From NCBI GenBank assembly GCA_047456305.1, contig CP179888.1:381307-445306 (forward strand): a DNA stretch of 64,000 bases, given 5' to 3'. The translations under genes and the position numbers were made by a program. Shown here piece after piece: positions 4,892-29,920 of this stretch. How positions within the stretch are numbered: the stretch's first letter is position 1; each line of letters starts with the position of its first letter. This DNA comes from Candidatus Nealsonbacteria bacterium. Its GTDB lineage: Bacteria > Patescibacteriota > Minisyncoccia > Minisyncoccales > CAZKCU01. Below the pieces are notes generated by a model, which did no database searches, was not told where the DNA came from, and worked only from the letters and a program-made list of their open reading frames with translations.

Positions 4892-4979
4892 CTCATATAA
4901 TTAGTAGACCATTGTACATGGTCTTTCTAAACCATGCCAACCAAACAGATTTAAACAACGCCCAGTCTCAGAGGTTGTT

Positions 4980-12508: not shown

Positions 12509-14827
12509 TTATTGTTCCAAGCTTCTCAAAAATTCATCTACCACTGGTTTAGCTTTAGGGTCCAACTCCAACGCTTTTAAAGCTACTTCTCTTGCTTTTC
12601 CTTTATCTCCCAATTCTTTATAAATAACAGCCAAAGAAGCATAAAGTTGGGCTTTTTTAGTTTTATCAGAGGTAATTGAAATTAATCTTGGATAAGTTTC
12701 AGCTAAACCTTGGTAGTTTTTAATTCTCATATACATATTAAGTAGTTGTGATAGAGCTTCTTTTGATTCCGTGTTGTAATCTTTTTCTTGAGCAAGGGCT
12801 ATAAAATAATTAAATTCTTCAGAATTTTCTAAATAAGCTTGGATTAATGCCATTAGCCAATAACATTCTCCAGAATTTGGATTTAAATTAATACATTGTT
12901 GGGCTTTTTCTTTTGCTTTCTGGTATTCGCCGGTTATTAAATTAGTTTTTGACCACTCAGTAAAAATTTCCTGGTGTTTTGGACTTAATAAGTGAGCTTT
13001 CTCAAAGTAATAATTTGCCTCATTTTTTAGCTTCTCTATTTCTTCTGTGATAATGTTATCATTAAGTTCAAGTTTTTTTTCCATTAAGACATTAGTGTAT
13101 TCAGCGAGCAAAAGCCAATTTCGAGTATAATAAGGATGAATCTCTATATTTTTTTTAAGAAGTTGAATTGCTTTTTTAGCAAACTCCTCAGCTGATTTTG
13201 ATTTTTCGTCAGTACAAGTTTGAATAATACCTGCACATTTTAGTCGTAAATAATTGTCTATGATACTATGGGAAGAAGAGATATTTTCTATTATTTTTAA
13301 AGATTTTTCACACTTTTCGTTTTTCGAAAAATAAATAGCTAAATTTAAATCTTTGTTAATTTGAAAAGGCTTTAGATTAAAAGACCAAATAAACCAGATT
13401 AAACAAATCAAAAGGACAAATATTATTGTTTTTTTATATTTATATAATCTATTAATAACAGCTTTCTCTATTTTTTTATTATTATTTAGAGAATCGACTT
13501 CCATTCGCAAATTAGCATTAGATATCAGATGCAAAGAATAGCTGATTAGAAGAAAGGAGATGAGATAAGAAGAAAAAGTATCAAAACTAGAAAGATTGGC
13601 TATTAAATAACCGACGAAAGTTGCCTGAATTCCATGACAAATTACAGCTGTTTCTGGTCGCTTTCTTTTTACTTTCTGGAGCTGCCAAAACAGAGTTCCA
13701 AAAAGCGAAAGATAAATTATTAGAGCCGGGATACCAGCTGCAATCGGGATATCAAAAATAAAATTATGAGCTCTATCCCACCATTCTACTCCTCTTAGAA
13801 GCAGGGAAGTATCATAATACTTGTCAAAAGCAATCATAAAATTCTCTGGTCCATAACCTAAAACTGGTCTGGCTTTAAGAGCTTCCCATGAAACTTTCCA
13901 GCTGGAAATTCGGGGGTCTCCAAGAGCGGTTTTAATTGAAAGCCGGCTTATAGTCCCTCTGATAAGTTTATTTTCCTGAATAACTTGAGGAAGTTGGGAC
14001 TGGGTATTAATATAATAAATTCCGCAAATTCCTAAAATTAAAAGAATCCCGGTAAAAACTTTAACCAAAAGCAATCTCTTTGGATAAAAAAATAAAAACC
14101 AAAGAAAACCAACAACTAATCCAATATAAACAGCTCTGGTTTTAGCTAAAAAAATAATAATAAAAAGAAACAGTAAAAAAGAAGAGAAATAAAAAATCTT
14201 TCTTTTAAAATTCTTCTTTTGAATTCCGAAAGAGAGAGTTAAAAAACTCAAAAGCAAAAGATAAATCGCCAACATTATTGGATTGCCGAAGGTGGAAAAG
14301 GGGCGGCCTTCATAAGTAATAAGGATATCTTTAAACAAACCCTGCCATTGAAAAACAGCGAAAATTGAAACAAAAATTCCAATCAAAATGGCGAAATTCC
14401 AGATTTTCTGCCAATCTAATTTTCGTAAAACTAAAAAAGATAAGACAGCAAAAATAATATAGAAAGAAAAATTTACAAAGCCGCCGGAACGATAAGGATT
14501 TCCCCAGAGGCTAAAGTGAGGGTCTAAAGAAAAAATTGTTGCCAAAAGGTAAATTCCGAATAAGGCAACCAAAAGCCAGAAGGCCAGAGATACTGATTTT
14601 ATTTTGTTTTTGATATTAAAGATATCAACTTTTTTATAGAGAATCTGCCCCAAAAACAAGAAAACTAAAATAGAAAGGATAATGCGAAAAACTATGGTTT
14701 TGCCCCAGCCAATAGGCGTAAACCAAGGGGGCAAATTCAAAAGCGGCAAAGACAAAATCAAAAAAAAGCCAATTAAATAGAACCAACGGAATCTATTTTG
14801 AGGTAAGATTATCTGCTTGTCTTTCAT
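12509..14827 (-). CDS. O-antigen ligase/polymerase (Wzy_C)-family membrane protein with C-terminal TPR repeats
   Basis: About 12 TM helices, the Wzy_C-like motif WDRAHNFIFDIPIAAGIPALIIY, and a C-terminal TPR-like half. Confidence 0.75.
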   Translation of the reverse strand: MKDKQIILPQNRFRWFYLIGFFLILSLPLLNLPPWFTPIGWGKTIVFRIILSILVFLFLGQILYKKVDIFNIKNKIKSVSLAFWLLVALFGIYLLATIFSLDPHFSLWGNPYRSGGFVNFSFYIIFAVLSFLVLRKLDWQKIWNFAILIGIFVSIFAVFQWQGLFKDILITYEGRPFSTFGNPIMLAIYLLLLSFLTLSFGIQKKNFKRKIFYFSSFLLFLFIIIFLAKTRAVYIGLVVGFLWFLFFYPKRLLLVKVFTGILLILGICGIYYINTQSQLPQVIQENKLIRGTISRLSIKTALGDPRISSWKVSWEALKARPVLGYGPENFMIAFDKYYDTSLLLRGVEWWDRAHNFIFDIPIAAGIPALIIYLSLFGTLFWQLQKVKRKRPETAVICHGIQATFVGYLIANLSSFDTFSSYLISFLLISYSLHLISNANLRMEVDSLNNNKKIEKAVINRLYKYKKTIIFVLLICLIWFIWSFNLKPFQINKDLNLAIYFSKNEKCEKSLKIIENISSSHSIIDNYLRLKCAGIIQTCTDEKSKSAEEFAKKAIQLLKKNIEIHPYYTRNWLLLAEYTNVLMEKKLELNDNIITEEIEKLKNEANYYFEKAHLLSPKHQEIFTEWSKTNLITGEYQKAKEKAQQCINLNPNSGECYWLMALIQAYLENSEEFNYFIALAQEKDYNTESKEALSQLLNMYMRIKNYQGLAETYPRLISITSDKTKKAQLYASLAVIYKELGDKGKAREVALKALELDPKAKPVVDEFLRSLEQ

Positions 14828-14864
14828 ATTATTTTATGATACAAAGAAAATATAAAAACCACAA

Positions 14865-15335
14865 ATGAAAATGGGAAATAAAAAGAAAAAAATTATTGTA
14901 GCAGTAAGTGGGGGATTTGATCCACTCCATGCCGGCCATATCAAATTATTTAAAGCAGCTAAAAAACTCGGGGATAAGTTGATAGTAATTTTAAATAATG
15001 ATAATTGGTTAAAGAAAAAGAAGGGTTTTGTATTTATCCCTCAAAATGAAAGAAAGGAGATTATTAAATCATTAAAATGGGTTGATAGAGTTATTATCGC
15101 TGGGCACGGTCCCGACCCAAAAGATCTGAGCGTGGGGGCTGAGCTTAAAAAATTGAGGCCGAACATTTTTGCCAACGGCGGGGATAGAACCAAAAAAAAT
15201 ATTCCCGAAGTAGCAATATGTAAAACAATTAACTGTAAGATGGTTTTTAATGTGGGGAAGGGCGGAAAAATTCAATCAAGTTCCTGGTTATTAAAAAAAT
15301 TCTTAAAGGCAAAAAATATTTCCCGGGAGTCATAA
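14865..15335 (+). CDS. cytidylyl/adenylyltransferase-family protein (RfaE domain II / TagD-like)
   Basis: VAVSGGFDPLHAGHIKLFKAAKKLGDKLIVILNND carries the nucleotidyltransferase HxGH signature. Confidence 0.8.
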   Translation: MKMGNKKKKIIVAVSGGFDPLHAGHIKLFKAAKKLGDKLIVILNNDNWLKKKKGFVFIPQNERKEIIKSLKWVDRVIIAGHGPDPKDLSVGAELKKLRPNIFANGGDRTKKNIPEVAICKTINCKMVFNVGKGGKIQSSSWLLKKFLKAKNISRES

Positions 15336-15429
15336 ATTACTATAGGGCTAAATTTTTAACCTAATTTTGATACTAATTGACCCCTCTTGACACCATTTTC
15401 TAAGAGGGGTTATTATTAATAATAGATAT

Positions 15430-15678
15430 ATGCCAAAAGAAATTAAACCAAATCAGGTTTATACAACTAAAGAAGCGCAGGATTTTCTAAAAATAAGCAC
15501 CAGCACTACCAAGAGATTATTAAAGAAAGGAATAATTAAAGCCTATAAAGTGGGAGGCAGATACCGAATTTGGGGAAGCGAAATCTTAAAATTGGTTTCC
15601 CCAGAAGTTGAGTCAGGGGTTTATAAGGTTTATAAACGCCTTAGAGAAAAAACCAAAAAAACCATTGAAAAATGGTGA
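15430..15678 (+). CDS. excisionase/MerR-type helix-turn-helix DNA-binding protein
   Basis: YTTKEAQDFLKISTSTTKRLLKKGIIKAYKVGGRYRI matches the HTH_17 pattern. Confidence 0.7.
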   Translation: MPKEIKPNQVYTTKEAQDFLKISTSTTKRLLKKGIIKAYKVGGRYRIWGSEILKLVSPEVESGVYKVYKRLREKTKKTIEKW

Positions 15679-15698
15679 TTTTTTAATAAAAAGTAATT

Positions 15699-17159
15699 AT
15701 GAAAATTAGAAATTTCACTGATGTTAAGTCATTATTTTTTGATAATAAAACCCTTAAACAAACGATTTTTAAAAATATTAGTTGGCTAATAGTAGCTGAA
15801 GTAATTTCAAAAGGAATTGGATTTTTAGTAGTTGTTTGGTTGGCTCGTCATTTTGGTCCAACAATTTATGGTCAATGGGCATTTGCTTTGAGTTTTGTGG
15901 CTATTTTCGCTGTATTGGCTGATTTTGGATTTTCAACTTTAACTGTAAGAGAAATTGCCAGAGATAAATTTAAAAGTGCAAAGTATATTGACAATATAAT
16001 AGGAATGAAATTAATTTTGGGACTGGTTACTCTTGGCTTGATTGCTTTTGTTATCCAATTTTTAGGAAAAGAACCGGAAATCGTAAAATTAGTCTATTTT
16101 TTAGGAATTTATGTAGTTTTAAATACTTTTGCTACCTTTTTTCACTCAATTTTTAGAGCAAATGAAAAAATGGAATATGAGGCGGCCTCTCGAGTTATTC
16201 AGAGTGTAAGTTTATTGGGATTGGTAGCCTTTTTTATTCTTAATAAAGGCTCTATTTTAACTATAAGTTATGCCTATCTCAGCGCTGTTTTAATTGGAAT
16301 AATTTTTACTTTAATTTTTATCAGGTGCTATTTTTCAAAGTTCTTTTTAAAAATTAATTTTGAAATATGTCAGGAAATTTTTAAAGAAGCCTGGCCAATC
16401 GGTTTAGTTGCTTTAGCCACTACTATTTGTTATTCTTTAGGTTCGGTATTACTTGGCCTTATGAGATCAGATATAGAAGTGGGTTGGTATAATGCTGCTT
16501 CTCGAATAATATTCGCCATTATTCCCTTCTCGAGTATCTTCTTTTTTAGCTTTTTTCCTCAAATGAGTCGAGCTTTCAAAGAAAGCTACGATAATTTAAA
16601 GAATGTCGTTGAAAAATATGCTCTTTTAATGTTCGGAGTAGGATTACCTCTGGGAATTGGCGGCTTTATAGTCGCTCCAGAGTTAATAAAATTTTTATAT
16701 GGACAGCCATATCTTGAAACCACATTGCCTTTCCAGATATTAGTTTGGAATTTGACAATAATTTTTATGATCACTCTCTATGGAAATTCTTTATGGGCCC
16801 TTGATAAACAAAAAGATTTTTTAAAAGCAGTTTTAATCGGAGCAACATTCAACATTGCTGCAAATTTAGTTTTAATACCAAAATATGGCATAATTGGAGC
16901 GGCAATTGCTGCCCTTTTAACAGAAATTGTAATATTTATAAAAGTATCTATTGAATTTAATAAAACAATCAAAATAAATTTGAAAAATATTCTTTTACCT
17001 ACTGGTGTTTCTTCCATTTCTATGGCCTTAGTTTTAATCGGAGTAAAAGAAATAGGAATTATGAATCCAATTTTATTAATTCTATGTGGTGGAATAATTT
17101 ATATTTTAATACTTTATTTCTATATAAGAAAAAATCTTGGAACGATGATAAAAATTTAA
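15699..17159 (+). CDS. polysaccharide flippase (Wzx, MOP superfamily)
   Basis: 486 aa with about 12-14 TM helices, and it sits in a glycan cluster. Confidence 0.75.
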   Translation: MKIRNFTDVKSLFFDNKTLKQTIFKNISWLIVAEVISKGIGFLVVVWLARHFGPTIYGQWAFALSFVAIFAVLADFGFSTLTVREIARDKFKSAKYIDNIIGMKLILGLVTLGLIAFVIQFLGKEPEIVKLVYFLGIYVVLNTFATFFHSIFRANEKMEYEAASRVIQSVSLLGLVAFFILNKGSILTISYAYLSAVLIGIIFTLIFIRCYFSKFFLKINFEICQEIFKEAWPIGLVALATTICYSLGSVLLGLMRSDIEVGWYNAASRIIFAIIPFSSIFFFSFFPQMSRAFKESYDNLKNVVEKYALLMFGVGLPLGIGGFIVAPELIKFLYGQPYLETTLPFQILVWNLTIIFMITLYGNSLWALDKQKDFLKAVLIGATFNIAANLVLIPKYGIIGAAIAALLTEIVIFIKVSIEFNKTIKINLKNILLPTGVSSISMALVLIGVKEIGIMNPILLILCGGIIYILILYFYIRKNLGTMIKI

Positions 17160-17177
17160 ATTAAATAAACAAGTTCT

Positions 17178-17495
17178 ATGGATCAACAACCTTTCACATT
17201 TATTAAACGTATCCGCGAGTTGCGCAAAATATCAGGAGGTTCTCTTAATTGCGGTTGGATGTGTGATGAAATTGTATTTTTATTATATAGTTTAGTAAAA
17301 GTATATAAACCAGAGCTGGTAATCCAAACAGGGCATTTATGGGGTAAATCTATTTGTATTGTGTTAGATGCTTTAACAAATGGATTTCTAATGGGTGATT
17401 ATTCGATTGAAGACCGAGAACAAAACGGCGATCTTAAATTCTTAGAGTTTCTTAAAAAAAATAAACCCGCCCCCCCCAAAAAAAATGTAAGGTGA
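17178..17495 (+). CDS. class I SAM-dependent methyltransferase, N-terminal fragment (frame broken at a C8A8 tract)
   Basis: Contains a motif-I-like strand, ELVIQTGHLWGKSICIVL. The ORF ends just after the homopolymer at 17470-17485. Confidence 0.6.
   Translation: MDQQPFTFIKRIRELRKISGGSLNCGWMCDEIVFLLYSLVKVYKPELVIQTGHLWGKSICIVLDALTNGFLMGDYSIEDREQNGDLKFLEFLKKNKPAPPKKNVR
17470..17485 (+). repeat. homopolymer C8 followed by A8 at the junction of two ORF fragments
   Basis: GCCCCCCCCAAAAAAAATG. Adding one nt (or removing two) fuses 17178..17495 with 17492..18004. Confidence 0.9.
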
Positions 17496-18004
17496 TGAGT
17501 ATCGATCCGGATCCCTCTGGGGTCCCACATATTGAAGAAAGTATTAGATATCTTATTTCTCATTATGATAACTTCGAATTTAAGAAGATGAAAAGTTCAG
17601 AATTTTTTGACAAATATAGAAATCAACTATCTGTCGACTTCAAAGGAAAAAGAGTATTGGGTATTATCGATGGCGACCATTCAGCATATGGGTGCATTCG
17701 AGACCTTTACGATTTCTATAGTATTGGAGCGGGCTTAATACTCGTAGATGATACTGTTTGGTTACCTCATATTGGTAGAATAGCTCGATTATTTGCGAAA
17801 CGGAAAGGATATGAATTTTTTGATTTCTCGCTTTATAACGGTATGGGTATATTGTATAAAAAACCTACCATTACTATCGGCACTTCTTCTGTATTTGACA
17901 AAATAATTTATTGGTTATGGTTTTTTGGGAACAATACAAATTTTCTCCACACTACTGTCAAATTTGTCCGTAAAGTAAAATCAATTATCAAAAAGTATTT
18001 TTAA
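17492..18004 (+). CDS. class I SAM-dependent methyltransferase, C-terminal fragment
   Basis: VMSIDPDP (beta-2/acidic motif), then VLGIIDGDHSAYGCIRDLYDFYSIGAGLILVDD (Methyltransf_24-like). This frame is open upstream to 17465. Confidence 0.6.
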   Translation: MMSIDPDPSGVPHIEESIRYLISHYDNFEFKKMKSSEFFDKYRNQLSVDFKGKRVLGIIDGDHSAYGCIRDLYDFYSIGAGLILVDDTVWLPHIGRIARLFAKRKGYEFFDFSLYNGMGILYKKPTITIGTSSVFDKIIYWLWFFGNNTNFLHTTVKFVRKVKSIIKKYF

Positions 18005-18128
18005 AAACTTATTATGATAAGTAAATCAAATAAAATTTGTCTGGTAACAACAACTATTAGTAAAGGCGATTTTCTTGATTATTATTTAGAGAAATTTATG
18101 TGGGCGAATGTGCCTTAAGTAAAATATT

Positions 18129-18842
18129 ATGAAGATCATAAAACGTCTTACATATAGCCGAAAATTTAGAAGATTAGCTCGATTCCTTCATCTTAGCAAT
18201 ATTCTCAGGAAATTATATTACTATTTCTTGCATCCACCAGATGGGATACTTACATTAGAAGTCAGTGGGATAACTGCTCAATTCTATATTCGGACACCTG
18301 GGGAATTAAGGGTGCTAGAATCAATGGGAGGAGAACAGCATATTTTAAAGCTATTAATTCCTAGACTCCGCCCAGGAGATGTCGTCTACGATATTGGAGG
18401 ATATGTTGGTCTCTATACTATTCTTCTAGCAAAAGTAGTAGGGCAAAAAGGTCAGGTGATTGCTTTTGAACCCCAGAGTCAAAATTTTGAGCATCTTTTA
18501 GATAACTTAAAGTTGAACCGTTTAACAAACGTTCGGGTTTTTCAAAAAGCCTTAGGCGATCGAGAAGAAAAAAGAAAGCTTTACTTAGGTGAGGGTACTT
18601 GGACTGCTAGTTTAGTTCGACCATTCAAAACAGAGACAGATTACACATTGGTAGAGCTTGTGAAAGGGGACCAATTCGTAAAGGCTGAGAATTTGTCTAT
18701 ACCAAAGGCGGTGAAGATTGATGTCGGGGGATACGAATATAATATGATTAAGGGGTTGCGTCGTACCCTAGCGCATCCCGCTTGTGAAATAGTATGCTGT
18801 GAGGTTCACCCCCCCCCTGTTACCAGCCGGAATTGCTTCTGA
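18129..18842 (+). CDS. FkbM-family methyltransferase, truncated by a frameshift at a C9 tract
   Basis: VVYDIGGYVGLYTILLAKVVGQKGQVIAFEPQSQNFEHLLDNLKLNRLTNVRVFQKALG. After C9 (18809-18817) the +1 frame continues with LLPAGIASDAIPGLLKSFGFKRVEIYP... and reaches TAA at 18967-18969. Confidence 0.75.
   Translation: MKIIKRLTYSRKFRRLARFLHLSNILRKLYYYFLHPPDGILTLEVSGITAQFYIRTPGELRVLESMGGEQHILKLLIPRLRPGDVVYDIGGYVGLYTILLAKVVGQKGQVIAFEPQSQNFEHLLDNLKLNRLTNVRVFQKALGDREEKRKLYLGEGTWTASLVRPFKTETDYTLVELVKGDQFVKAENLSIPKAVKIDVGGYEYNMIKGLRRTLAHPACEIVCCEVHPPPVTSRNCF
18809..18817 (+). repeat. homopolymer C9 inside the FkbM methyltransferase gene
   Basis: CACCCCCCCCCTG. Loss of one C restores a protein of about 279 aa. 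Confidence 0.9.
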
Positions 18843-19007
18843 TGCGATTCCCGGTTTGTTAAAATCATTCGGCTTTAAACGGGTCGAAATTTATCCTCGT
18901 GAGAGCGAGCACCATATAGTTGCTTATAAAACAGCTCTAACTAAAGAATTAAGAAATTCATCGAATTAACAAAGAGAGAGGATTAAAATGAAACCAAAAA
19001 ATAATCT

Positions 19008-20120
19008 ATGAAACAATGTTTAGTGCTCACAACCATTAATATACCTTATTTACTCCGCGATTATGCGAAAAATTTTGTAAAATATAAACACCAAAAAGAC
19101 GTTGAAATATTGGTTATTGGAGATATTAAGACACCGGCTAAAGTTAATTCTTTAATAGATGAGGTCAGGAGTTTGGGAGTATCGGCACACTATATTAATA
19201 TTTCCACTCAAAAGAATTGGTTGAGTAAATTTCCTACCTTAGATAATATTATTCCTTATAACTCAGATAATCGGCGCAATATTGGCTACTTGATGGCAGT
19301 TGAGCGAGGAGCTGGCATTATCGTTATCATTGATGATGATAACTTCGTGGATCCAAAGCAAGATTTCTTTAAGGATCATTCGATAGTTGGTCAAGTTGTC
19401 GAATTTGATGCAGTTAGTTCCGAAAGTGGCTGGTTTAATGTTTGCTCAATGTTAAAAGTAAAGCCAGATCGGGTTATTTTTCCTCGTGGTTTTCCTTATT
19501 CTAAGCGATGGAAAGGTGGAGATATTAGACAGCGGAGAACCCGCGGACGCGTAGTTATTAATGAAGGACTTTGGTTCAATGACCCGGACATTGATTCAAT
19601 TACAAGGTTGACAGAAGATGTAAAGGTAACAGGGATTATTAAAGATCGGTTGGTGCTGGATCAAGGTACTTTTGCTCCAATTAATACCCAAAATACTGCA
19701 TTCCACCGGGATATCTTACCATGTGCCTATTTTTTACTTATGGGTAAAAACATACGAGGCCTGAAGATTGACCGCTACGGCGATATTTGGTTTGGATTGT
19801 TCGCTAAAAAAATTATTGACCATTTGAATGACTACGTAAGTTTTGGAAAACCCTTTTCAATTCACCGGCGTAATCAACATAATCTTTTTAAAGATCTCCA
19901 GCAAGAACTTTGGGCAATAATCTTAACTGATACCTTGGTTGAATTCTTAGAATCTATAAACCTTAAAAGCTCCACTTATAACGACTGTTATCATGAGTTA
20001 GCTGATCAACTCGAGAAGTTTGCTTCAAATAACAAGAATTTGGATAAAGAAGTCCAGTCCTACTTTAAAGAGATTTCATCAGCTATGAGAGTTTGGTTGA
20101 GTGTTTGTGCATCTCTTTAG
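19008..20120 (+). CDS. putative glycosyltransferase (RGP/GT75-like, DDD motif)
   Basis: CLVLTTINIPYLL... and GIIVIIDDDNFV resemble the reversibly-glycosylated-polypeptide family. The assignment is tentative. Confidence 0.45.
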   Translation: MKQCLVLTTINIPYLLRDYAKNFVKYKHQKDVEILVIGDIKTPAKVNSLIDEVRSLGVSAHYINISTQKNWLSKFPTLDNIIPYNSDNRRNIGYLMAVERGAGIIVIIDDDNFVDPKQDFFKDHSIVGQVVEFDAVSSESGWFNVCSMLKVKPDRVIFPRGFPYSKRWKGGDIRQRRTRGRVVINEGLWFNDPDIDSITRLTEDVKVTGIIKDRLVLDQGTFAPINTQNTAFHRDILPCAYFLLMGKNIRGLKIDRYGDIWFGLFAKKIIDHLNDYVSFGKPFSIHRRNQHNLFKDLQQELWAIILTDTLVEFLESINLKSSTYNDCYHELADQLEKFASNNKNLDKEVQSYFKEISSAMRVWLSVCASL

Positions 20121-20166
20121 CAATAAAATTCAAGATTAATATCTCTCACTTAAATTAAGCGAATTT

Positions 20167-21390
20167 ATGAAGATTTTACTTGTACAACCATATGCACTTG
20201 GACCTGGTCATTATGAAGCTTACACCCAGAGATTGTGTGCGGGCTTTTGCAAATTAAGTGTGGATACCACTTTAATAACTGCTGCTGGAACAAGAGGAGG
20301 TTGGGAAAATGAATTGCCACTTCGGTCCCTCCAAGCAATGAAAGCTAATTCATCTTTTCTTTTCACTTTAGATGCTGGTAAAAAATTACAGGTAATCGAT
20401 AGAGTAATGGGACGAATACGCTTTCTCTGGACAAGTTGGGTTGTTGAAAGAGTAGCTTTTACTCATTTTGTTAAAGATGACTACGACATTTTACATTTTA
20501 TTGACGCTGAACCAATAACCCTATCGATACTTTTTTTGTTATTTGGTAAGCCCCAAAATGTTTTTTTGACCATTCCAGCACCTTATACCATTCCTGCTCG
20601 TGGAAAATCTATTTATCGATATACTTATGACCCCCTTAGAAGAGCCATGGCTCGTTGGCTATTTAAATATATCAAGCCCATTACTCATAGCCAACATGTT
20701 AAAAAATCTCTTTTTAATCTTAAAATTGTATCTAAGGTGGAAGTGCCGGTTATTCCTTGGGGAATCGATACTCCCTCCTTAACTTGCAACCGTTTAGAAG
20801 CTCGACAAAAATTAGGAATCAAAGAAGATTCTCCCATTTTAGGTTTTTTTGGTTACCTCCTTCCCCAAAAAGGATTTGATCTGGTCCTTAAAACCTGGCC
20901 CTCTTTAAACCAAAAATGCCTTCTTTTAGCTTTTGTTCATTCGGATAGACCTGGTGGGGAAAGCAAGATTAGAAATCGAGTCCAGGAAGCAGGTATTAAT
21001 AATCGCACTCTTATTAAATTTGGTTATGCTTCAGAAAAGGAGTTAGCCCTCCATATTCGGGCCTGCGATGGTATTCTCTTGCCTTATCAAAAAACCTTTC
21101 AAGGAGAAAGTGGCATTATGGCTTTGGCCCTTTCTCACCAAATTCCCTTAATTGCTGCTAATACCGGTAGAATAGGGGAGGTGGTTTCTCAAAACAATCT
21201 TGGGATTATATTTAAACCAGATTCTTCCTTGTCATTTAAGGAGGGGATAGATAAATTTCTTAATTTTAAAAAAGAAGAAATTAATCAAATAAAAAAGAAT
21301 ATTAACTTGTATACTAAATTGTATAGTTGGAAAGAAATTGCCAATCAGCACTTAATGGCCTACCAGAAAGATAAAAAATATGAGCGATGA
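20167..21390 (+). CDS. glycosyltransferase family 4 (GT-B)
   Basis: The C-terminal half resembles glycos_transf_1 (ILGFFGYLLPQKGFDL..., LLPYQKTFQGESGIMALALSHQIPLIA). Confidence 0.7.
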   Translation: MKILLVQPYALGPGHYEAYTQRLCAGFCKLSVDTTLITAAGTRGGWENELPLRSLQAMKANSSFLFTLDAGKKLQVIDRVMGRIRFLWTSWVVERVAFTHFVKDDYDILHFIDAEPITLSILFLLFGKPQNVFLTIPAPYTIPARGKSIYRYTYDPLRRAMARWLFKYIKPITHSQHVKKSLFNLKIVSKVEVPVIPWGIDTPSLTCNRLEARQKLGIKEDSPILGFFGYLLPQKGFDLVLKTWPSLNQKCLLLAFVHSDRPGGESKIRNRVQEAGINNRTLIKFGYASEKELALHIRACDGILLPYQKTFQGESGIMALALSHQIPLIAANTGRIGEVVSQNNLGIIFKPDSSLSFKEGIDKFLNFKKEEINQIKKNINLYTKLYSWKEIANQHLMAYQKDKKYER

Positions 21391-22645
21391 GAGAGAAAAA
21401 TTAAAAGTTTTAGTGTGCGCCTATGCCTGCCAACCAGGAGGTTCTTTAAAATGGGTGGGGCTTGGAGAGTTGATTTTGGGTTGGAACATTGTTAACCAAC
21501 TTGGTCGGTTTCATCGAATTTGGGTTTTGACCCATTCTCAGAATCGTGCTGGTATAGAAGCTGCACTTCAAAAAAAAATTCTCTCTAATGTCCATTTTTA
21601 TTATATTGATTTACCCGCTTTATTCAGACCTTTATTAAATTTTGAAGGAGGTATTCACCTCTATGCTTATTTGTGGCAAATAAAAGCATATTTTGTATCC
21701 CGTAAATTACATCAAAAGCTTCATTTTGATGTTTTTCACCATGTTACTTATGCCAATGACTGGATGGCTTCTTTCATTGGTGCTTTATTGCCCATTCCCT
21801 ACATTAGAGGACCAGGGGGAGGGGCTCATTGTGTTCCAAAAGGTTTTTTTCAAGAATTCTCCTTTCGAGAGCATTTCTGGGATCTGCTTCGTGCAATTGG
21901 ACAATGGCTCTTTCGGCATGATATATTTTTCATATTGGGTCAGCGGCGTGCCCGGGCGATTATGGTTTGTAGCCGTGAATCACTGGGGGCAATACCTGAA
22001 AAGTGGCGGCAAAAAACCCATCTTTTCCCAGTAAACGGAATAACGAGAAGAGATTTGACCCTCCTTGCTCCAAGAAAAATAAACAGTAATAAATTCCGCG
22101 TTTTTTCTGTTGGCAAATTAATCCGAATTAAAGCCTTTAACTTAGCAATAAAAGCTTTTAAAATCTTTGCCGATAAAGTTCCAGAAGCTGAATTAACTAT
22201 TATTGGTGATGGGCCAGAACTTACACGATTGAAAAATTTATCTTCCAAATTGGACCTTGAGAAAAAAGTTCATTTTCTAGGTTGGTTACCTCGGGAGGAA
22301 TTATTATTTAAAATGCCTTCATTCGATGTATTTCTTTTTCCCGGCTTGGGTGGAACGGTAGTAATGGAAGCAATGGCCGCTGGTAAACCAGTGATCTGCC
22401 TTGATATCGCGAGTCCTGGGATAAATGTTACAAATGACTGTGGTATAAAAATCAAACCTTATTCTCCTGACCAGGTAATCAAAAAAATGGCAGAAGCTTT
22501 AGAACGTTTATATCGAGACAAAGAATTAAGGCTTCGATTAGGAAATGCAGCCAGAATCCGGGTAGAGAGAGAGTATCGCTGGGATCGTTTAGGCGAACGC
22601 CTACTAAAAATCTATCAAGAAGTTCTAAGAAAAAATAAAGCATGA
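21380..22645 (+). CDS. glycosyltransferase family 4 (GT-B)
   Basis: GDGPELTRLKNLSSKLDLEKKVHFLGWLPREEL...VMEAMAAGKPVICLD is a typical group-1 GT signature. Confidence 0.8.
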   Translation: MSDEREKLKVLVCAYACQPGGSLKWVGLGELILGWNIVNQLGRFHRIWVLTHSQNRAGIEAALQKKILSNVHFYYIDLPALFRPLLNFEGGIHLYAYLWQIKAYFVSRKLHQKLHFDVFHHVTYANDWMASFIGALLPIPYIRGPGGGAHCVPKGFFQEFSFREHFWDLLRAIGQWLFRHDIFFILGQRRARAIMVCSRESLGAIPEKWRQKTHLFPVNGITRRDLTLLAPRKINSNKFRVFSVGKLIRIKAFNLAIKAFKIFADKVPEAELTIIGDGPELTRLKNLSSKLDLEKKVHFLGWLPREELLFKMPSFDVFLFPGLGGTVVMEAMAAGKPVICLDIASPGINVTNDCGIKIKPYSPDQVIKKMAEALERLYRDKELRLRLGNAARIRVEREYRWDRLGERLLKIYQEVLRKNKA

Positions 22646-24021
22646 AATCTGTTACTTTAACTACTTCAATTAAAGACCAACCCACAATAAAAAATAAGAT
22701 TTTAGACACAGATCAAAAGTTGGCGCCTGGTTTATTGCTAAGCCTAATACTTTGGCTTATGCTTTGGGTGGGATATAATATTGGAATCGAACGAGCAATT
22801 TCTCCTGGTTTTCCACATAGCACACTCGATTTAATTCATAGGGTTCGCGCCTTTCTGCCCCTTTCGTCTGCTTATTTAGCCATTATCTTACTATTGGGAC
22901 GGCATCCTCTTTCCATAAGGCTCTTTAGAGGTCCTTTGGGCCTGCTGGCACTCTACACTATTTTTGGTATTACTTCGTCAATACTTTCAAGGGAACCGTT
23001 TACGGCTTTATCCTGGGCTATTTTGTATGGTGCTGTTTTGATAGTGGTCTGGGCAATTTCGGTTGGTTCAAATTCGTTGTCTCGTCTTTCCTCCGTCATT
23101 AATCTTAACTGGGCTATCGTTGCTGTCGTGGGAGTTTCCTTACTTGTGTTTTTTCTATTTCAGCCAGGCGTAATTTCATCGCTAATCGCTGGTAATTTTC
23201 CGGTTGGAAGACCTTATGGGGAATTAGCAGGAGAGGAAAAGGAAATAATGGGAATGCCAGGAACCCGTCCCACCGGTCTTGGAAGATATGCTGGGGTAGT
23301 AGCAATTGTTTTCTTGGCCAGACTTTTATTTCCTAAAAAGAGGTCAAAGTCTCTTTGGTTTTTCTTATTCCTCTTTTTTCTATTTTTACTTATTTTTTCC
23401 CAGGCCCGGACAGCCATTTTAGCTTTTCTTGCTGGAGGGCTTTTGATTCTTTGGTTGAAGACTCGGTCAAAACTCCTCTTAACCTTCGGAATAATCTTTG
23501 GTCTCTTTCTCCTTGGTCTGACCGGATTTTACCAGGCTTTTTATACCTATTTAATAGAAAAGATGCCTTTTGTTTTTACTTTAAGCGGTCGAACTATTGG
23601 CGTCTGGCCCGAGGCTTGGCAGTTTTTTTTGAGTTCGCCATTTTTAGGTTGGGGATTTCATGCCGATAGAATTTTTTTAGAAGGCCAGCATATCCACAAC
23701 GCCGTTCTTCATGCACTAGTTCAAACAGGATTAATTGGCACTATTTTTTTTGTCTCCGCCTTTATTTGGGCCTGGATCATTTTATTTCGGCTTCTTAAAC
23801 AGCCACGATTTCAAAAAACGGAAAAGCCTCGTTTAATTGAGATAGCCGGGGTGCTGGCTTTTTTTACAGTCAGAAGTATTACCGAATCAACCGGAGCATT
23901 TTTTGGGGCGGACTGGATTTTGCTGGCTCCTCTTTTGGCCTATATTACAATTCTAAATCAGAGAAATTTTTATTTTAAGTCAGTGAAAGGACAATATATT
24001 AAGAAAAAAGAAGTTGCTTAA
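22642..24021 (+). CDS. O-antigen polymerase/ligase (Wzy)-family membrane protein
   Basis: Polytopic membrane protein with the Wzy_C-like motif GQHIHNAVLHALVQTGLIGTIFF. Confidence 0.75.
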   Translation: MKSVTLTTSIKDQPTIKNKILDTDQKLAPGLLLSLILWLMLWVGYNIGIERAISPGFPHSTLDLIHRVRAFLPLSSAYLAIILLLGRHPLSIRLFRGPLGLLALYTIFGITSSILSREPFTALSWAILYGAVLIVVWAISVGSNSLSRLSSVINLNWAIVAVVGVSLLVFFLFQPGVISSLIAGNFPVGRPYGELAGEEKEIMGMPGTRPTGLGRYAGVVAIVFLARLLFPKKRSKSLWFFLFLFFLFLLIFSQARTAILAFLAGGLLILWLKTRSKLLLTFGIIFGLFLLGLTGFYQAFYTYLIEKMPFVFTLSGRTIGVWPEAWQFFLSSPFLGWGFHADRIFLEGQHIHNAVLHALVQTGLIGTIFFVSAFIWAWIILFRLLKQPRFQKTEKPRLIEIAGVLAFFTVRSITESTGAFFGADWILLAPLLAYITILNQRNFYFKSVKGQYIKKKEVA

Positions 24022-24024
24022 TCT

Positions 24025-24810
24025 ATGGTGAAAAATAACTTCAAACAAATTCCATCTATTCAGATTTTAGGCAGCAGGGTCCATATGGTTCAAATTCCAG
24101 AAGTAGTGGAGCTCATAGCTCATTGGATTGAAAAGGAGTCTCAAAAATACCATTGGATTGTTGTTACTGGTATGCATGGGGTGATGGAAGCTTACAGAGA
24201 TGTAAAATTCAAAGCCATTCTTAACTCAGCTGATCTTTTTGTTCCAGACGGGATTTCTCTAATTTGGATAGCTCGTTATCGAGGTTTTCCCCTTAAAAAA
24301 AGAGTATCTGGAGCTGACTTAATGTGGGAATATTTTAAACTTGCCAACAAAAAAGGTTATCGGAATTTTTTCTATGGCGATACCAAAGAGACGCTTCAGG
24401 AGTTAGCTAAAAAGCTGTTAATAGATTTCCCCGAGCTTAAAATAGTAGGTCTTTATTCTCCTCCATTTCGGGCTTTAACTCCAGAAGAAGATGCAGAGAT
24501 TGTCAGGAAAATCAACGAAAAAAAACCAGATATTCTTTGGGTGGCTCTTGGTTTACCGGAGCAGGAACGTTGGATATTTGAACACCGAGACAAATTGGAA
24601 ATCCCTGTAGTAATAGGCGTTGGGGCAGCTTTTAAGTTTTTAAGTGGTAAAGTAAAAAGAGCTCCGGCCTGGTTAGGAGATTTGGGATTAGAATGGTTGT
24701 GGAGATTTTTTCACGAACCCCGGAAACTTTGGCGTCGAGTTTTTTTAGACATACCTGCTTTTATTTTTTTAGTTTTACTTGAATTGATTGGATTTAAAAC
24801 TAAAAAATGA
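24025..24810 (+). CDS. WecG/TagA/CpsF-family glycosyltransferase (GT26)
   Basis: ADLFVPDGISLIWIARYRG..., PDILWVALGLPEQERWI, VGAAFKFLSGKVKRAP. Confidence 0.85.
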   Translation: MVKNNFKQIPSIQILGSRVHMVQIPEVVELIAHWIEKESQKYHWIVVTGMHGVMEAYRDVKFKAILNSADLFVPDGISLIWIARYRGFPLKKRVSGADLMWEYFKLANKKGYRNFFYGDTKETLQELAKKLLIDFPELKIVGLYSPPFRALTPEEDAEIVRKINEKKPDILWVALGLPEQERWIFEHRDKLEIPVVIGVGAAFKFLSGKVKRAPAWLGDLGLEWLWRFFHEPRKLWRRVFLDIPAFIFLVLLELIGFKTKK

Positions 24811-24824
24811 TAAAATAAAATAAT

Positions 24825-25796
24825 ATGGAAAAAACAGAAAAAATTTTAGTTACGGGTGCAGGTGGTTTTATTGGCCATTATTTAGTTAGATTTTTAAAGA
24901 AAAAAGGATATTGGGTAAGAGGAGTTGATATTAAATATCCAGAATTCTCTTCAAAAGATGAAGCTGATGAATTTTTATTATTAGATTTAAGATTCTTAGA
25001 TAATTGCCTTAAAGCGACTAAAGGAATAGATGAAGTTTATGCCTTAGCTGCCAATATGGGCGGAATTGGATTTATTACCTTTCACACCTCAGACGTTCTT
25101 TATGATAATGTTTGCATTAATGCTAACACAGCCGAGGCTTCCAAGAGAAATGGAGTTAAAAGATTACTCTTTTCTTCATCAGCTTGTATTTATCCAACAT
25201 TCAAACAAGAAAATCCAGACGTAACAGCGTTGAAAGAAAGCGATGCTTATCCGGCTTTTCCTGATAATGAATATGGATGGGAGAAATTATTTTCAGAAAG
25301 ATTATATAAAAGTTACTCTGATTTTTATGGGGTGAGAATAACTAGATACCATAATATCTATGGGCCAGAAGGAACTTTCGAAGGAGGAAGAGAAAAAGCG
25401 CCGGCTGCACTCTGTCGGAAAATAGCTTTAGTCAAAGACGGAGGAGAGATTGAGGTGTGGGGAGATGGAAATCAGACGCGATCATTCTATTATATAGATG
25501 ATTGCTTAGAAGGAACTTATAAATTAATGAGGTCAAATTATAAAGAACCTCTAAATGTTGGTTCTGACAGATTAATAACTATTAATGATTTTATAGATTT
25601 AATTGCTAATATTGCGGGCAAGAAAATCAAAAAGAGACACAATTTAACTAAACCCCAAGGAGTGAGGGGTAGAAATTCTGATAATACTCTTTGTAAAAAG
25701 ATTCTTAATTGGAAATCTAAGATTCCCCTTGAAGAGGGTTTAAAAAGAACCTACCAATGGATTGAAAAAGAACTAAGAAAGCAGGGAAGAATTTAA
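24825..25796 (+). CDS. NAD-dependent epimerase, GDP-mannose 3,5-epimerase-like
   Basis: VTGAGGFIGHYL. A long stretch (AANMGGIGFI...GVKRLLFSSSACIYP...LKESDAYPAFPDNEYGWEKL...RYHNIYGPEGTFEGGREKAPAALCRK) closely follows the GME family pattern. Confidence 0.8.
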   Translation: MEKTEKILVTGAGGFIGHYLVRFLKKKGYWVRGVDIKYPEFSSKDEADEFLLLDLRFLDNCLKATKGIDEVYALAANMGGIGFITFHTSDVLYDNVCINANTAEASKRNGVKRLLFSSSACIYPTFKQENPDVTALKESDAYPAFPDNEYGWEKLFSERLYKSYSDFYGVRITRYHNIYGPEGTFEGGREKAPAALCRKIALVKDGGEIEVWGDGNQTRSFYYIDDCLEGTYKLMRSNYKEPLNVGSDRLITINDFIDLIANIAGKKIKKRHNLTKPQGVRGRNSDNTLCKKILNWKSKIPLEEGLKRTYQWIEKELRKQGRI

Positions 25797-25797
25797 A

Positions 25798-27120
25798 ATG
25801 CAAAAAAAGATTTTTTTAAAATTCGTTCTTATAATTGGAGATGTTTTTTTAATGTATGGGGCTTTGCTTTTGACTCTAGCCTTAAGATACAGAGATTTTT
25901 CTTTCCTGCCAGGTTCCCAAACTAAAATTTTTCTTTTTCATTTTTCTTTTATTTATCTATTTTGGCTTTTTTTTCTCTTTCTCCTAGATTTTTATGAAAT
26001 TCCGCCCTTCAAAAAAGTTTTCGATTTTTTCTCTAATTTAATAATTTTCCTTTTTTTGGCTGGCACCTTTGGAATAATTTATTTTTATCTCCGGCCTCAG
26101 ATGATTATTACTCCAAAGACCATTTTAGTTTTAGATGTTTTAATATTTGGGCTTTTTCTTTGCGGTTGGCGATATGTTTTTAGTTGGATTTTAAAACTTC
26201 AGAATTTTAGAGAAAAAATGGTAATAATTGGCTTTCAGCCAGAACTTAAAGATATATCATCAAACCTACTTTACCAAAATGGGTATGAAATTGTAGCGTC
26301 TTTTGACCCCGATTCTTTTGAGATTTCTAAACTCAAAGAAATAATAGAGAAAGAAAATATTAATTCAATAGTTTTTGCTTTAGATTTTCACAAAAATGAA
26401 GAATTAGTACAGCAGATTTTTCAAAATTTACCTCTTAAATTGAACTATATTAGCTTCGTCGATTTTTATGAGTCATTAACTAAAAAAGTACCTATTGAAG
26501 GTATCAGCGAAATCTGGTTTTTAGAGAATCTCTCCCGGGCGGAAAGAAAAATTGATGAAGTCCTAAAACGGAGTTTCGATATTATATTTTCCTTAATTGG
26601 ACTTTTAATTACTGCTATTTTGTTTCCCTTCATTGCTTTAGCGATAAAATTAGATTCTCCTGGTTCTATTTTTTATATTCAAAAAAGAGTTGGTAAAGAT
26701 AGAAAAATTTTTACTTTATATAAATTTCGAACTATGAAAGAAAGCCCAAATCAATACAAAGAACCCTGGAGGGAGAGGGATCCCAGCCAGATTACCAGAG
26801 TCGGTAAGGTATTACGAAAAACTAATTTAGATGAATTTCCTCAATTTTGGAGTATTTTAAAAGGAGATTTGAGCTTTATTGGACCAAGGGCAGAATGGGA
26901 AAAATTGGCTAGGGTTTTTGAAAAAGAAATTCCTTTTTATTCTCAACGTTGTCTAATAAGACCTGGCTTTACTGGTTGGGCCCAAATTAATTTCCCCCCT
27001 TCTACCTCAATTGAAGAAGCAAAAGAGAAATTTAAATATGACCTTTACTATATTAAAAATCGCTCCTTCTTTTTGGATTTGGGAATTATTTTAAAAACGA
27101 TTAGAATCATTTTTAAATAG
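25798..27120 (+). CDS. polyprenyl-phosphate glycosyl-1-phosphate transferase (WbaP/EpsB-type bacterial sugar transferase)
   Basis: KRSFDIIFSLIGLLIT...LDSPGSIFYIQKRVGKDRKIFTLYKFRTM...DEFPQFWSILKGDLSFIGPRAE. Confidence 0.9.
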   Translation: MQKKIFLKFVLIIGDVFLMYGALLLTLALRYRDFSFLPGSQTKIFLFHFSFIYLFWLFFLFLLDFYEIPPFKKVFDFFSNLIIFLFLAGTFGIIYFYLRPQMIITPKTILVLDVLIFGLFLCGWRYVFSWILKLQNFREKMVIIGFQPELKDISSNLLYQNGYEIVASFDPDSFEISKLKEIIEKENINSIVFALDFHKNEELVQQIFQNLPLKLNYISFVDFYESLTKKVPIEGISEIWFLENLSRAERKIDEVLKRSFDIIFSLIGLLITAILFPFIALAIKLDSPGSIFYIQKRVGKDRKIFTLYKFRTMKESPNQYKEPWRERDPSQITRVGKVLRKTNLDEFPQFWSILKGDLSFIGPRAEWEKLARVFEKEIPFYSQRCLIRPGFTGWAQINFPPSTSIEEAKEKFKYDLYYIKNRSFFLDLGIILKTIRIIFK

Positions 27121-27162
27121 ACATTCCCCGAAGGTAAATTATTTGCTATAATTAGAAAATAC

Positions 27163-27876
27163 ATGAACCAACAAGAAAACATTCAAACAGAATATGAGGA
27201 GGAAATTGATTTAATGGATTATATTAAAGTGATATTTAAAAGGAAGTGGTTGATTTTAGTTATATTTTTAGTGGCTGTAATTGCAGCTGGAGTTTTTAGT
27301 TATTTCGCCCCCAAAATTTATAAAATTAGTGCTTCTTTTGAGATAGGGATAATAGGAGATAAAATAATAGAAGAACCTAACCAGGTAATAGGAAAAATTA
27401 ACGGTGATGCCTATGGGATTTTAGTGAGAGAAAAATTAGGGATATTAGAGTACCCAGAAGTAAAAGCTGAGAATCCAAAAGGGACCAATTTGGTAATAAC
27501 TGAAACAGAATCTATTAATCCGGAGTTGACTAAAAACGTTTTAAATGAAATTAATAATTTAATCATAGAAGACCACCAAAGAGAAATTAACCTCCGAAAA
27601 GAACTTTTAGAAAAAGAGATTCAAGGATTGCAGGAAAGTATTAATTATTTAATTTCCAAAAACCAGGAAATAGTCCTTCTTCAATTAAAGCTGCATGACT
27701 TACAAAAACAAAAAGAGAATTTTCAACCTACCCAGGTAATTTTAAAAGCTACGGTTTCTAAAAAACCGATAAAACCAAAACTGGCCTTAAATATCATTAT
27801 AGCCGGGGTATTGGGAATTTTCGTGGGACTATTTTTTGCTTTTGGAAAAGAATGGTGGGAGAAGAATAGAACGTAA
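27163..27876 (+). CDS. Wzz-like polysaccharide chain-length determinant
   Basis: EIDLMDYIKVIFKRKWLILVIF... (TM1), a coiled-coil middle part, and a C-terminal TM helix (LNIIIAGVLGIFVGLFFAF). Confidence 0.75.
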   Translation: MNQQENIQTEYEEEIDLMDYIKVIFKRKWLILVIFLVAVIAAGVFSYFAPKIYKISASFEIGIIGDKIIEEPNQVIGKINGDAYGILVREKLGILEYPEVKAENPKGTNLVITETESINPELTKNVLNEINNLIIEDHQREINLRKELLEKEIQGLQESINYLISKNQEIVLLQLKLHDLQKQKENFQPTQVILKATVSKKPIKPKLALNIIIAGVLGIFVGLFFAFGKEWWEKNRT

Positions 27877-27914: not shown

Positions 27915-27986
27915 AGTGAGTGCGCCAAACGGCACTCCATCTAAGTCGACGACAGGCTTCCCTCGAGCGAAGCCTGTTGTTTTTTA
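27915..27986 (+). ncRNA. candidate small RNA (promoter + two hairpins + intrinsic terminator)
   Basis: Hairpin GAGTGC-gccaaacg-GCACTC, then ACAGGCTTC-cctcgagc-GAAGCCTGT followed by TTGTTTTTTATT. No ORF. Identity unknown. Confidence 0.35.
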
Positions 27987-28162: not shown

Positions 28163-29068
28163 ATGAGTATTAAAAAACTTTTACCAAGAGTTAAAACGAA
28201 TACTTCTTTAAAAAACTACACTACTTTTAAGATTGGGGGTCGGGCTAAATACTTTTATGTAGCAAAAACAAAAGAGAATTTGGTGAAAGCAGTAAGGGTG
28301 GTAAAGAAAATGAAATTGCCATTTTTTGTTTTGGGAGGAGGCTCAAATTTATTGATTTCTGACAAAGGGTTTAAAGGACTAGTTATAAAATTCGGTCAAC
28401 CGCTTTCTTTATATGTTTCAAAAGGCCTAGAATGGGCAGTTGGTATTCCCGGAACTATTCAGGGAGCAGTTTGGAGTAATGCTGGCGCTTTCAAAAAGTC
28501 AATGAAAGATGTTGTTAAAGAAGTTGAGGTTTTTGATACTAAAACAGGAAAAGTTAAAATTTTTAAAAATAAAGACTGCCGGTTTTCCTACAGAAATAGC
28601 ATTTTCAGAAAGGAAAAAAATTTAATTATTCTTTCGGTAAAAATCAAATCGAAAAAAAGTAATACCAAAAAAATAAAGCAATATTCAGACTATAGAAAAA
28701 AAACTCAACCATTAGAGTTTCCTTCAGCAGGAAGTATTTTTAAGAATCCGAAGAACTTAGTGGCAGGAGAATTATTGGGCGAAGAAGATAAACCTTCTTC
28801 TTCAGCCTTCGCTGCCGCTCGGCTAATTGGCGAAGAAGATAAACCTTCTTCTTCAGCCTTCGCTGCCGCTCGGCTAATTGAAGAATGCGGATTGAAAGGA
28901 AAAAAAATTGGAGAGGTTCAGGTTTCTAAAAAACATGCAAATTTTATTATTAATTTAGGAGATGGAAAGGCAAGAGATGTTAAAAAATTGATAAATTTAA
29001 TAAAAAGAAAAGTGAAAAGTAAATTTGGAGCAAATTTGGAAGAGGAGATTCAATATTTAGGTTTTTAA
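28163..29068 (+). CDS. murB: UDP-N-acetylenolpyruvoylglucosamine reductase MurB (with a 34-aa repeat insertion)
   Basis: LKNYTTFKIGGRAKYF, FFVLGGGSNLLISD, PSAGSIFKNP, IEECGLKGKKIGEVQVSKKHANFIINLG. Confidence 0.93.
   Translation: MSIKKLLPRVKTNTSLKNYTTFKIGGRAKYFYVAKTKENLVKAVRVVKKMKLPFFVLGGGSNLLISDKGFKGLVIKFGQPLSLYVSKGLEWAVGIPGTIQGAVWSNAGAFKKSMKDVVKEVEVFDTKTGKVKIFKNKDCRFSYRNSIFRKEKNLIILSVKIKSKKSNTKKIKQYSDYRKKTQPLEFPSAGSIFKNPKNLVAGELLGEEDKPSSSAFAAARLIGEEDKPSSSAFAAARLIEECGLKGKKIGEVQVSKKHANFIINLGDGKARDVKKLINLIKRKVKSKFGANLEEEIQYLGF
28778..28879 (+). repeat. family-A palindromic element, two perfect tandem 51-bp copies, in frame in murB
   Basis: GGCGAAGAAGATAAACCTTCTTCTTCAGCCTTCGCTGCCGCTCGGCTAATT occurs twice (28778-28828 and 28829-28879). 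Each encodes GEEDKPSSSAFAAARLI. Confidence 0.95.
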
Positions 29069-29890: not shown

Positions 29891-29920
29891 TAAACCCCGT
29901 TAGAGACTAACGGGGTTTAC
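29891..29920. terminator. palindrome TAAACCCCGTTAG-AGA-CTAACGGGGTTTA between convergent genes
   Basis: Perfect hairpin shared by the hpf 3' end and the stop region of the minus-strand ATPase gene. The same arm sequence recurs at 34338-34403. Confidence 0.6.

Follow-up and report, generated by a model that had tools for sequence, protein, structure and literature searches.

A candidate poly-C contingency locus in an FkbM methyltransferase gene of a Candidatus Nealsonbacteria polysaccharide cluster

Can a bacterium of the Patescibacteria, or candidate phyla radiation (CPR), switch the chemistry of its surface by changing the length of a homopolymer? This question is raised by a locus in a 64-kb stretch of DNA (the window, 35.9% G+C, in whose positions all coordinates below are given) from the 639,534-bp genome of Candidatus Nealsonbacteria. 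There, a putative methyltransferase gene of a polysaccharide cluster is interrupted at a run of nine C residues (C9), and the gene upstream of it at a run of eight (C8). CPR bacteria are ultra-small, are thought to be host-attached and are exposed to phages; the cell surface is the site of those interactions, and little is known of its variation. We regard slipped-strand phase variation of glycan O-methylation as the best explanation of this locus, and hold that reading with moderate confidence. The features of the first gene are the following (aa, amino acids; ORF, open reading frame; SAM, S-adenosylmethionine):

18129-18969, + strand: FkbM-family (PF05050) SAM-dependent methyltransferase gene, complete only across two frames; its ON form has 279 aa (C8) or 280 aa (C11).
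18809-18817, + strand: C9 homopolymer, the frameshift site, in place of the His-Pro-Thr/His-Leu codons of homologues.
18129-18842, + strand: OFF-state ORF as assembled, 237 aa, with the out-of-frame tail PVTSRNCF.
18818-18969, + strand: open stretch in the +1 frame with the C-terminal 50 codons of the methyltransferase.
Peptide spanning the tract junction in the full-length product: ...CCEVHPPLLPAGIASD...

The run lies within positions 18800-18819, which read tgaggttcaCCCCCCCCCtg. An earlier note on this DNA, made from its letters alone, had described an FkbM methyltransferase gene frameshifted at C9, and both the run at 18809-18817 and the stop of the 0 frame at 18842 are present. Its notation, CAC-C9-TG, is right as to C9 and TG and has to be amended to CA-C9-TG, the last C of the His codon being the first C of the run. 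The continuation that it reported in the +1 frame, 50 more codons to the TAA at 18967-18969 with an FkbM C-terminus, was also recovered: the quoted sequence is found in a second ORF (18799-18969) that reads ...LLPAGIASDAIPGLLKSFGFKRVEIYPRESEHHIVAYK..., and the PF05050 match crosses the tract. Deletion of one C does restore the gene, giving a 279-aa protein that can be aligned end to end with 15 homologues, all of them single-frame ORFs. By tract length, the product has 279 aa with C8, 280 aa with C11, 237 aa with C9, 243 aa with C7 and 244 aa with C10, the tract sitting near the 3' end of the gene (codon 228 of 279). The PF05050 match in the repaired protein covers residues 88-249 and positions 1-171 of the 173 of the profile, with a score of 52.3 bits against a cut-off of 22.7. 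The closest intact homologues (276-300 aa) are 64-67% identical, and their alignments extend past the tract, over 96-97% of the repaired protein. Regarding further damage, no second disabling lesion is present; the single lesion is at the tract, and the +1 frame is open to the natural stop. The 237-aa product is identical to NCBI XOB41510.1, entered as 'MAG: FkbM family methyltransferase [Candidatus Nealsonbacteria bacterium]' (MAG, metagenome-assembled genome).

The AlphaFold2 (AF2) model of the repaired protein has a class I (Rossmann-like) SAM-methyltransferase fold (predicted local distance difference test, pLDDT, 87.7; predicted template modelling score, pTM, 0.86). Foldseek against the PDB returned class I methyltransferases as the top matches (E about 1e-8), all generic, with no substrate-specific match for the acceptor. 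In the glycine-rich SAM-binding loop, YDIGgyvGlY, residues D88, G90 and G94 are invariant across the alignment. After the tract the model has a helix (239-246) and two strands (251-256 and 261-266), with a pLDDT of 86-97 for residues 229-270. Because this helix and these strands are modelled after the tract, the 237-aa OFF product is predicted to be without integral parts of the fold.

Two related alleles have tracts of different length, one allele being ON and the other OFF; neither has a further lesion. Clustering at 90% identity groups the truncated protein with a single other sequence, P0121, an intact protein of 279 aa. Its gene lies on a Logan contig of 15.8 kb (locus L001, run SRR30965930), where the tract is C8 (8822-8829) and the ORF is intact. 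Positions 18312-18933 of the window are 97.6% identical to L001 (607/622), with the tract as the only indel. The run is flanked by 65 identical nt on its 5' side and by 98 on its 3' side, and after the tract the window differs from the intact allele by one substitution in 115 nt (99% identity). Over the 205 shared codons, the ratio of non-synonymous to synonymous change (pN/pS) is 0.30, from six synonymous and six non-synonymous differences. Identity to L001 falls to 74% in the first 183 nt of the gene and is 82% in the downstream cluster. Because the 97.6% segment stands inside a locus that is about 82% identical overall, the FkbM allele seems to be a mosaic that was exchanged recently between two lineages. 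Exact-pattern scans with the flanks of the tract, over metagenome, genome and viral contig sets, returned no further alleles.

More distant relatives suggest how the tract arose. Four homologues (L004, L005, L006 and L087) have no tract at the site; their codons are CAT CCT ACT TTG, CAC CCT ACA TTG or CAT CCC ACT TTG (His-Pro-Thr-Leu), or CAT CCC CAT CTT (His-Pro-His-Leu). At the same site the tract alleles have CAC CCC CCC CTG, the window with one extra C. This comparison indicates that the tract is the derived state. From the closest homologue sequence (L006) to C8 there are four changes, all to C, of which three are synonymous and one replaces Thr by Pro. With the codon usage of the window (CCC for 21% of Pro, CAC for 29% of His and CTN for 44% of Leu), about 0.56% of His-Pro-Pro-Leu peptides would form a C8 run by codon usage alone. 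The uniform direction of the changes agrees with selection for the homopolymer; it is not a formal test of selection, because many sites in the genome could have yielded such a run.

The gene upstream is interrupted in a similar way:

17178-18004, + strand: split gene, consisting of 17178-17495 (105 aa) and 17492-18004 (170 aa), annotated as two hypothetical proteins; 275 aa when repaired.
17470-17485, + strand: C8 (17470-17477) followed directly by A8 (17478-17485), the frame break of this gene.

The C8 run starts 1339 nt 5' of the C9 run, so that two adjacent genes of one cluster are broken at poly-C tracts, as the earlier note had said of two glycan-modification genes. The tract is compound (17454-17485), consisting of A8, TAAACCCG, C8 and A8, and the frame is restored by one more C in C8 or by one more A in the adjoining A8; slippage in the C run or in the A run that follows it could thus do so. 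The intact homologue P0123 (loci L002 and L003), with 85% identity in protein and 87% in DNA, has CCTTTCTTTAC where the window has CCCGCCCCCCCCAAAA; because the window is 5 nt longer there, the gene is out of frame. The tract falls in a variable loop, residues 96-104 of a model with a pLDDT of 88.6, and no second lesion is present in the gene. Its family has weak matches to Methyltransf_24 (18/22 members, best E 3.9e-6) and also to RMNT_CmcI. In structure, the model is closest to cation-dependent O-methyltransferases (TM-scores 0.45-0.57), among them MeT1, a sugar O-methyltransferase from Mycobacterium hassiacum. It is reasonable to regard the product as a divergent Methyltransf_24/CmcI-like methyltransferase, an assignment that is fair at the level of the fold and less secure than that of the FkbM gene. 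An exact-pattern scan of metagenome contigs with the flanks of this tract returned no further alleles.

Apart from the two tracts, no G/C run in the 64 kb exceeds 6, the length of the C6 at 26994-26999. Both tracts are on the coding strand of the adjacent methyltransferase genes (together 2.6% of the window), and each is exactly at the frame break; that is, 2/2 G/C tracts are in glycan methyltransferase genes, in a window that represents 64 kb of the 639.5 kb. As background for G/C runs, and solely for that, we used relatives from GTDB genomes, which have at most 50% identity and come from scattered taxa (Nitrospirota, Acidobacteriota and others). A set of 37 low-GC loci from relatives, 509 kb in all, has two G/C runs of 8 or more, one of which is the homologous tract of L001. 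Without that tract, about 493 kb of low-GC homologous glycan loci of other organisms have one such run. Long G/C runs are much rarer in real low-GC sequence than in shuffled sequence. The number of tracts as a statistical argument was dropped after dinucleotide shuffles, and position and comparison were used instead.

The setting of both genes is a polysaccharide cluster, in which the FkbM gene has a probable partner:

12509-27876: Wzx/Wzy-type polysaccharide cluster, from Pfam annotation.
15387-15416 (promoter-like) and 27948-27981 (terminator-like): elements that bracket the + strand genes; consensus matches in numbers equal to chance, a weak hint of operon boundaries.
21380-22645, + strand: GT4 glycosyltransferase gene, the conserved partner of the FkbM gene, from Pfam and locus comparison.

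The cluster begins with genes for a Wzy_C/TPR protein, a small cytidylyltransferase, a helix-turn-helix (HTH) protein and the Wzx flippase, followed by both poly-C genes. The remainder encodes an RGP-like glycosyltransferase, two GT4 enzymes, a second Wzy_C protein, a WecG/TagA transferase, an epimerase, a Bac_transf priming transferase and Wzz. The FkbM and GT4 genes are adjacent and overlapping in L001 and L005. A fused FkbM-GT4 protein of about 650-700 aa is encoded in L087 (8950-11001) and L088, where the GT4 part is 76% identical, and in at least five others (P0181, P0194, P0195, P0201 and P0203). In the window, two extra glycosyltransferase genes (19008-21390) separate the FkbM gene from the GT4 gene. 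This adjacency and fusion in relatives supports the idea that the FkbM enzyme methylates the sugar handled by its GT4 partner. From such comparisons the cluster appears to be a recombining mosaic. The part of the cluster 5' of the FkbM gene is wholly different in L001 (258-8078, against 14865-18004 in the window). In L001 this upstream part has genes for a TylF-like methyltransferase, a short-chain dehydrogenase and epimerases, together with a dTDP-sugar isomerase-like gene; it also encodes a GHMP kinase, a SIS-domain protein, an NTP-transferase/HAD protein and a second FkbM protein. By analogy with the capsule locus of Campylobacter jejuni, it looks like a pathway for a nucleotide-heptose or 6-deoxyheptose.

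Taken as a simple-sequence contingency locus, the C9 run would work as follows. Slipped-strand mispairing at replication would add or remove a C. With C8 or C11 the cell would make the full FkbM methyltransferase of 279/280 aa (ON), and with C9, C7 or C10 a product truncated at 237-244 aa, without the last helix and two strands (OFF). The FkbM enzyme would pair with the neighbouring GT4 in the Wzx/Wzy pathway, so that switching would add an O-methyl group to the surface polysaccharide or take it away. As the upstream gene has a C8 tract of its own, the two tracts together would give four methylation states, both genes being OFF in the assembly. We infer that switching is frequent and reversible within the population, that the chemistry is probably glycan O-methylation, and that the selective benefit may be, for example, escape from phages or modulated contact with the host. 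Hypermutability sets in at about 7-8 or more G/C residues, as in surveys of Campylobacter and Neisseria. The tract in the FkbM gene is intragenic and shifts the frame, its length is in or above that range and differs between alleles (one comparison), and the gene is otherwise intact. The fuller statement, that Patescibacteria (CPR) switch the O-methylation of a Wzx/Wzy polysaccharide through poly-C contingency loci, with two tracts and four states and a tract allele that has moved between lineages, is more tentative, and we put it at somewhat less than even.

Several points weigh against phase variation. Only two tract alleles are present in the databases searched, and tract variation is therefore a single comparison. 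That comparison, C8 with C9, is between lineages that share only about 82% identity in the flanking genes. The persistence of the tract over a synonymous divergence (pS) of about 0.04 is uninformative, because less than one substitution is expected in nine sites. Finally, the C8 count does not reach significance: the window has three overlapping matches, where dinucleotide shuffles have a mean of 1.33 (standard deviation 1.72) and 16/100 shuffles reach three. As to the claim of the earlier note that two such genes make chance less likely, the runs are at the breaks of adjacent genes and are rare in the ~493 kb of other loci, and the C8 count itself is within the range of the shuffles.

Among the alternatives, the one that survives best is that both genes are recent and effectively fixed pseudogenes, formed by the same molecular event, slippage at chance tracts, in two dispensable glycan genes, with no adaptive or frequent switching. 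Both genes are indeed OFF in the consensus, the tract count alone is within chance under the shuffles, and the varying gene content of the mosaic cluster, with two extra glycosyltransferase genes in the window and a different upstream half in L001, suggests dispensability. However, decaying genes should have several lesions or relaxed constraint after the lesion; neither gene has a second lesion, and the part of the FkbM gene after the tract, with its one substitution in 115 nt, is 99% identical to the intact allele. Moreover, the tract allele is common to two lineages and is ON in one of them, and 4/4 changes at the site are to C despite an AT-rich background. Chance is also a poor explanation for tracts in two neighbouring genes that share a functional class, and a C8 or C9 run is expected to keep slipping, which would make reversion unavoidable. 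We consider fixed pseudogenes unlikely.

Rather improbable, in our estimate, is a miscall of the C runs in sequencing or assembly, with a true C8 in the FkbM gene and a true C9 upstream, so that both genes would be intact and there would be no OFF state. Each break comes down to a length difference of one base, and the two runs concerned are the longest G/C homopolymers of the window; the related L001 allele reads C8, and exact look-ups of protein P0001 and of both flanking proteins found no other assembly of the strain, all of which would suit such an error. However, there are 40 A/T runs of 8 or more, of which 27 are in the middle of ORFs, and 0/27 break the frame; nor does any of the 66 mid-ORF A/T runs of 7. 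Because these runs leave their frames intact, there is no general homopolymer problem. A directional bias fits poorly as well, because the two genes would need opposite corrections, one C fewer in the FkbM gene and one C more upstream. Even if the miscall were true, an in-frame C8 or C9 tract would stay a candidate contingency locus. Regarding housekeeping genes, secA, secD/F, pgk, murJ, murB, ftsEX, aconitase, icd, sufBD and mnmA look intact, and the scatter of homopolymer frameshifts over such genes that the earlier note had named as the mark of a technical artefact was not seen in the window. The only other frame break is in prfB, for release factor 2 (RF2; 49355-50429), at the canonical +1 site CTT TGA C (49418-49424), after codon 22; a seemingly N-truncated ORF of 228 aa is its second frame. 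Frameshifting throughout the assembly was rejected as an explanation, the apparently truncated RF2 gene being a canonical prfB site. Of the two possibilities left by the earlier note, phase variation or systematic homopolymer error, the first is in keeping with the C8/C9 difference between lineages, and the second, as a general error, is contradicted by the A/T runs.

Lastly, the full-length protein could come from C9 itself by recoding, through +1 slippage of tRNA-Pro on CCC-C at a Pro-Pro-Pro stall or through slippage of RNA polymerase. CCC-C is shift-prone for tRNA-Pro, and consecutive prolines stall ribosomes; the 0 frame here reads CAC CCC CCC CCT (His-Pro-Pro-Pro), the +1 frame has no stop between 18799 and 18842, where the 0 frame ends, making a shift anywhere in the run productive, and the same window has an example of +1 recoding in prfB. 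We dismiss recoding as very improbable: L001 is in frame at C8, and all other homologues are in frame with no tract; in the upstream gene a shift of the opposite sense (-1, or +2) would be required; nor was any stimulatory element identified. As the primary mechanism, programmed frameshifting was rejected for lack of conservation of the site, the two-frame architecture being absent in 15/15 homologues and in L001. Recoding may give at most a low-level leak on top of a switch in the DNA, the OFF state then being leaky.

The possible consequences of phase variation go beyond this cluster. If it is confirmed, a genome of ~0.64 Mb would, like those of Campylobacter and Neisseria, maintain hypermutable loci dedicated to varying the cell surface. 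This would be a second route of surface diversification in CPR bacteria, beside diversity-generating retroelements, which are known in this group. Annotation is affected too: pipelines break such genes into short ORFs, in this case a 237-aa 'FkbM family methyltransferase' and, upstream, two hypothetical proteins, and because split genes are annotated in this way, the glycan-modification capacity of MAGs is misjudged at such sites. A further long G/C tract in a CPR glycan locus was seen in a MAG of an uncultured Candidatus Saccharibacteria (26.5% GC; L068). There, an in-frame G8 (GAG GGG GGG GCA, 5031-5038) is present in a 356-aa ORF (4189-5259) of a glycan cluster with an FkbM homologue, in the ON state.

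Other features were noted elsewhere in the window. Dispersed GC-rich elements of about 48-51 nt, each consisting of the hairpin GAAGAAGATAAACCTTCTTCTTCA followed by a CCCTTCGCTGCGGCTCGGC-like sequence, are found at five sites:

5473-5523, 28773-28874, 41803-41840, 45532-45656 and 62183-62389: GC-rich hairpin elements.

At 4/5 sites they are in frame inside ORFs, namely those of a DeoR-HTH protein, murB, a DHH/DHHA1 gene (two copies) and mnmA. The copy in murB is a perfect duplication of 51 bp that encodes GEEDKPSSSAFAAARLI twice, and the one in mnmA is a 48-bp unit repeated 2.5-3 times, RFANARVFVDELRSSS, inside the HUP domain. At the fifth site, 41803-41840, the copy is just upstream of an ORF start at 41852. 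These elements are similar to the palindromic elements of Rickettsia, which insert into coding genes; assembly artefacts could also account for the perfect tandem copies. In addition, a BcrAD/BadFG-type ATPase of the activase family (29907-32123, - strand) is split by an intein with a LAGLIDADG homing-endonuclease domain, and two DUF2229/HGD-D genes (32151-33281 and 33328-34239) adjoin it.

The mechanism itself is well known; the lineage is unreported so far as our literature search shows. In the open-access literature searched, no paper linking simple-sequence repeat (SSR) phase variation to CPR/Patescibacteria was found, and the only match that pairs Patescibacteria with phase variation concerns archaeal consortia. 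The nearest CPR case is a hypervariable gene with an in-frame 9-mer repeat in a Gracilibacterium (PMC6851277). Confirmed switching would, within the limits of that search, make this the first SSR contingency locus to be reported from the CPR.

Compared with known systems, prfB is alike in having one gene in two frames with a +1 relation. It differs in its conserved CTT TGA C motif and its autoregulatory role, whereas the poly-C site is not conserved among homologues and varies in length between alleles. Reversible homopolymer frameshifts have been described in glpK of Mycobacterium tuberculosis (bioRxiv 10.1101/717272; PMC10334774), where a short G/C homopolymer likewise causes a transient heritable loss of function. 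That case is backed by population sequencing and phenotypes, and concerns metabolic genes of a high-GC genome in which runs are common by composition. Closer are the simple-sequence contingency loci that form the phasomes of Campylobacter, Helicobacter, Neisseria and Haemophilus, and the homopolymeric tracts known across prokaryotes (PMC2831843, PMC6321876, PMC8355987). These share with the present locus an intragenic tract of at least 8 G/C, a surface-structure gene, ON and OFF states that depend on the frame, and length differences between strains, a signature from which we infer the mechanism here; the difference is that two tracts were seen here in 64 kb.

The closest parallel is Cj1426 of C. 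jejuni, a capsule heptose 6-O-methyltransferase gene with an intragenic poly-G tract that is off with G9 and on with G10 (PMC3546167). In the same cluster, further tract-bearing modification genes lead to combinatorial surface variation (PMC8437040). The two systems differ in their organisms, since Nealsonbacteria are Patescibacteria from environmental metagenomes and not a host-associated pathogen, and switching here is a prediction. They also differ in the position of the tract, which is near the 3' end in Nealsonbacteria (codon 228 of 279) and leaves a long truncated OFF product. They are alike in having a G/C tract inside the ORF of a surface-polysaccharide methyltransferase, in a low-GC genome, with a one-base switch and other tract genes in the cluster. 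Moreover, L001, which carries the ON allele, has genes for a GHMP kinase, a SIS-domain protein and a nucleotidyltransferase beside its two FkbM genes, the same gene classes as those of heptose synthesis for the C. jejuni capsule.

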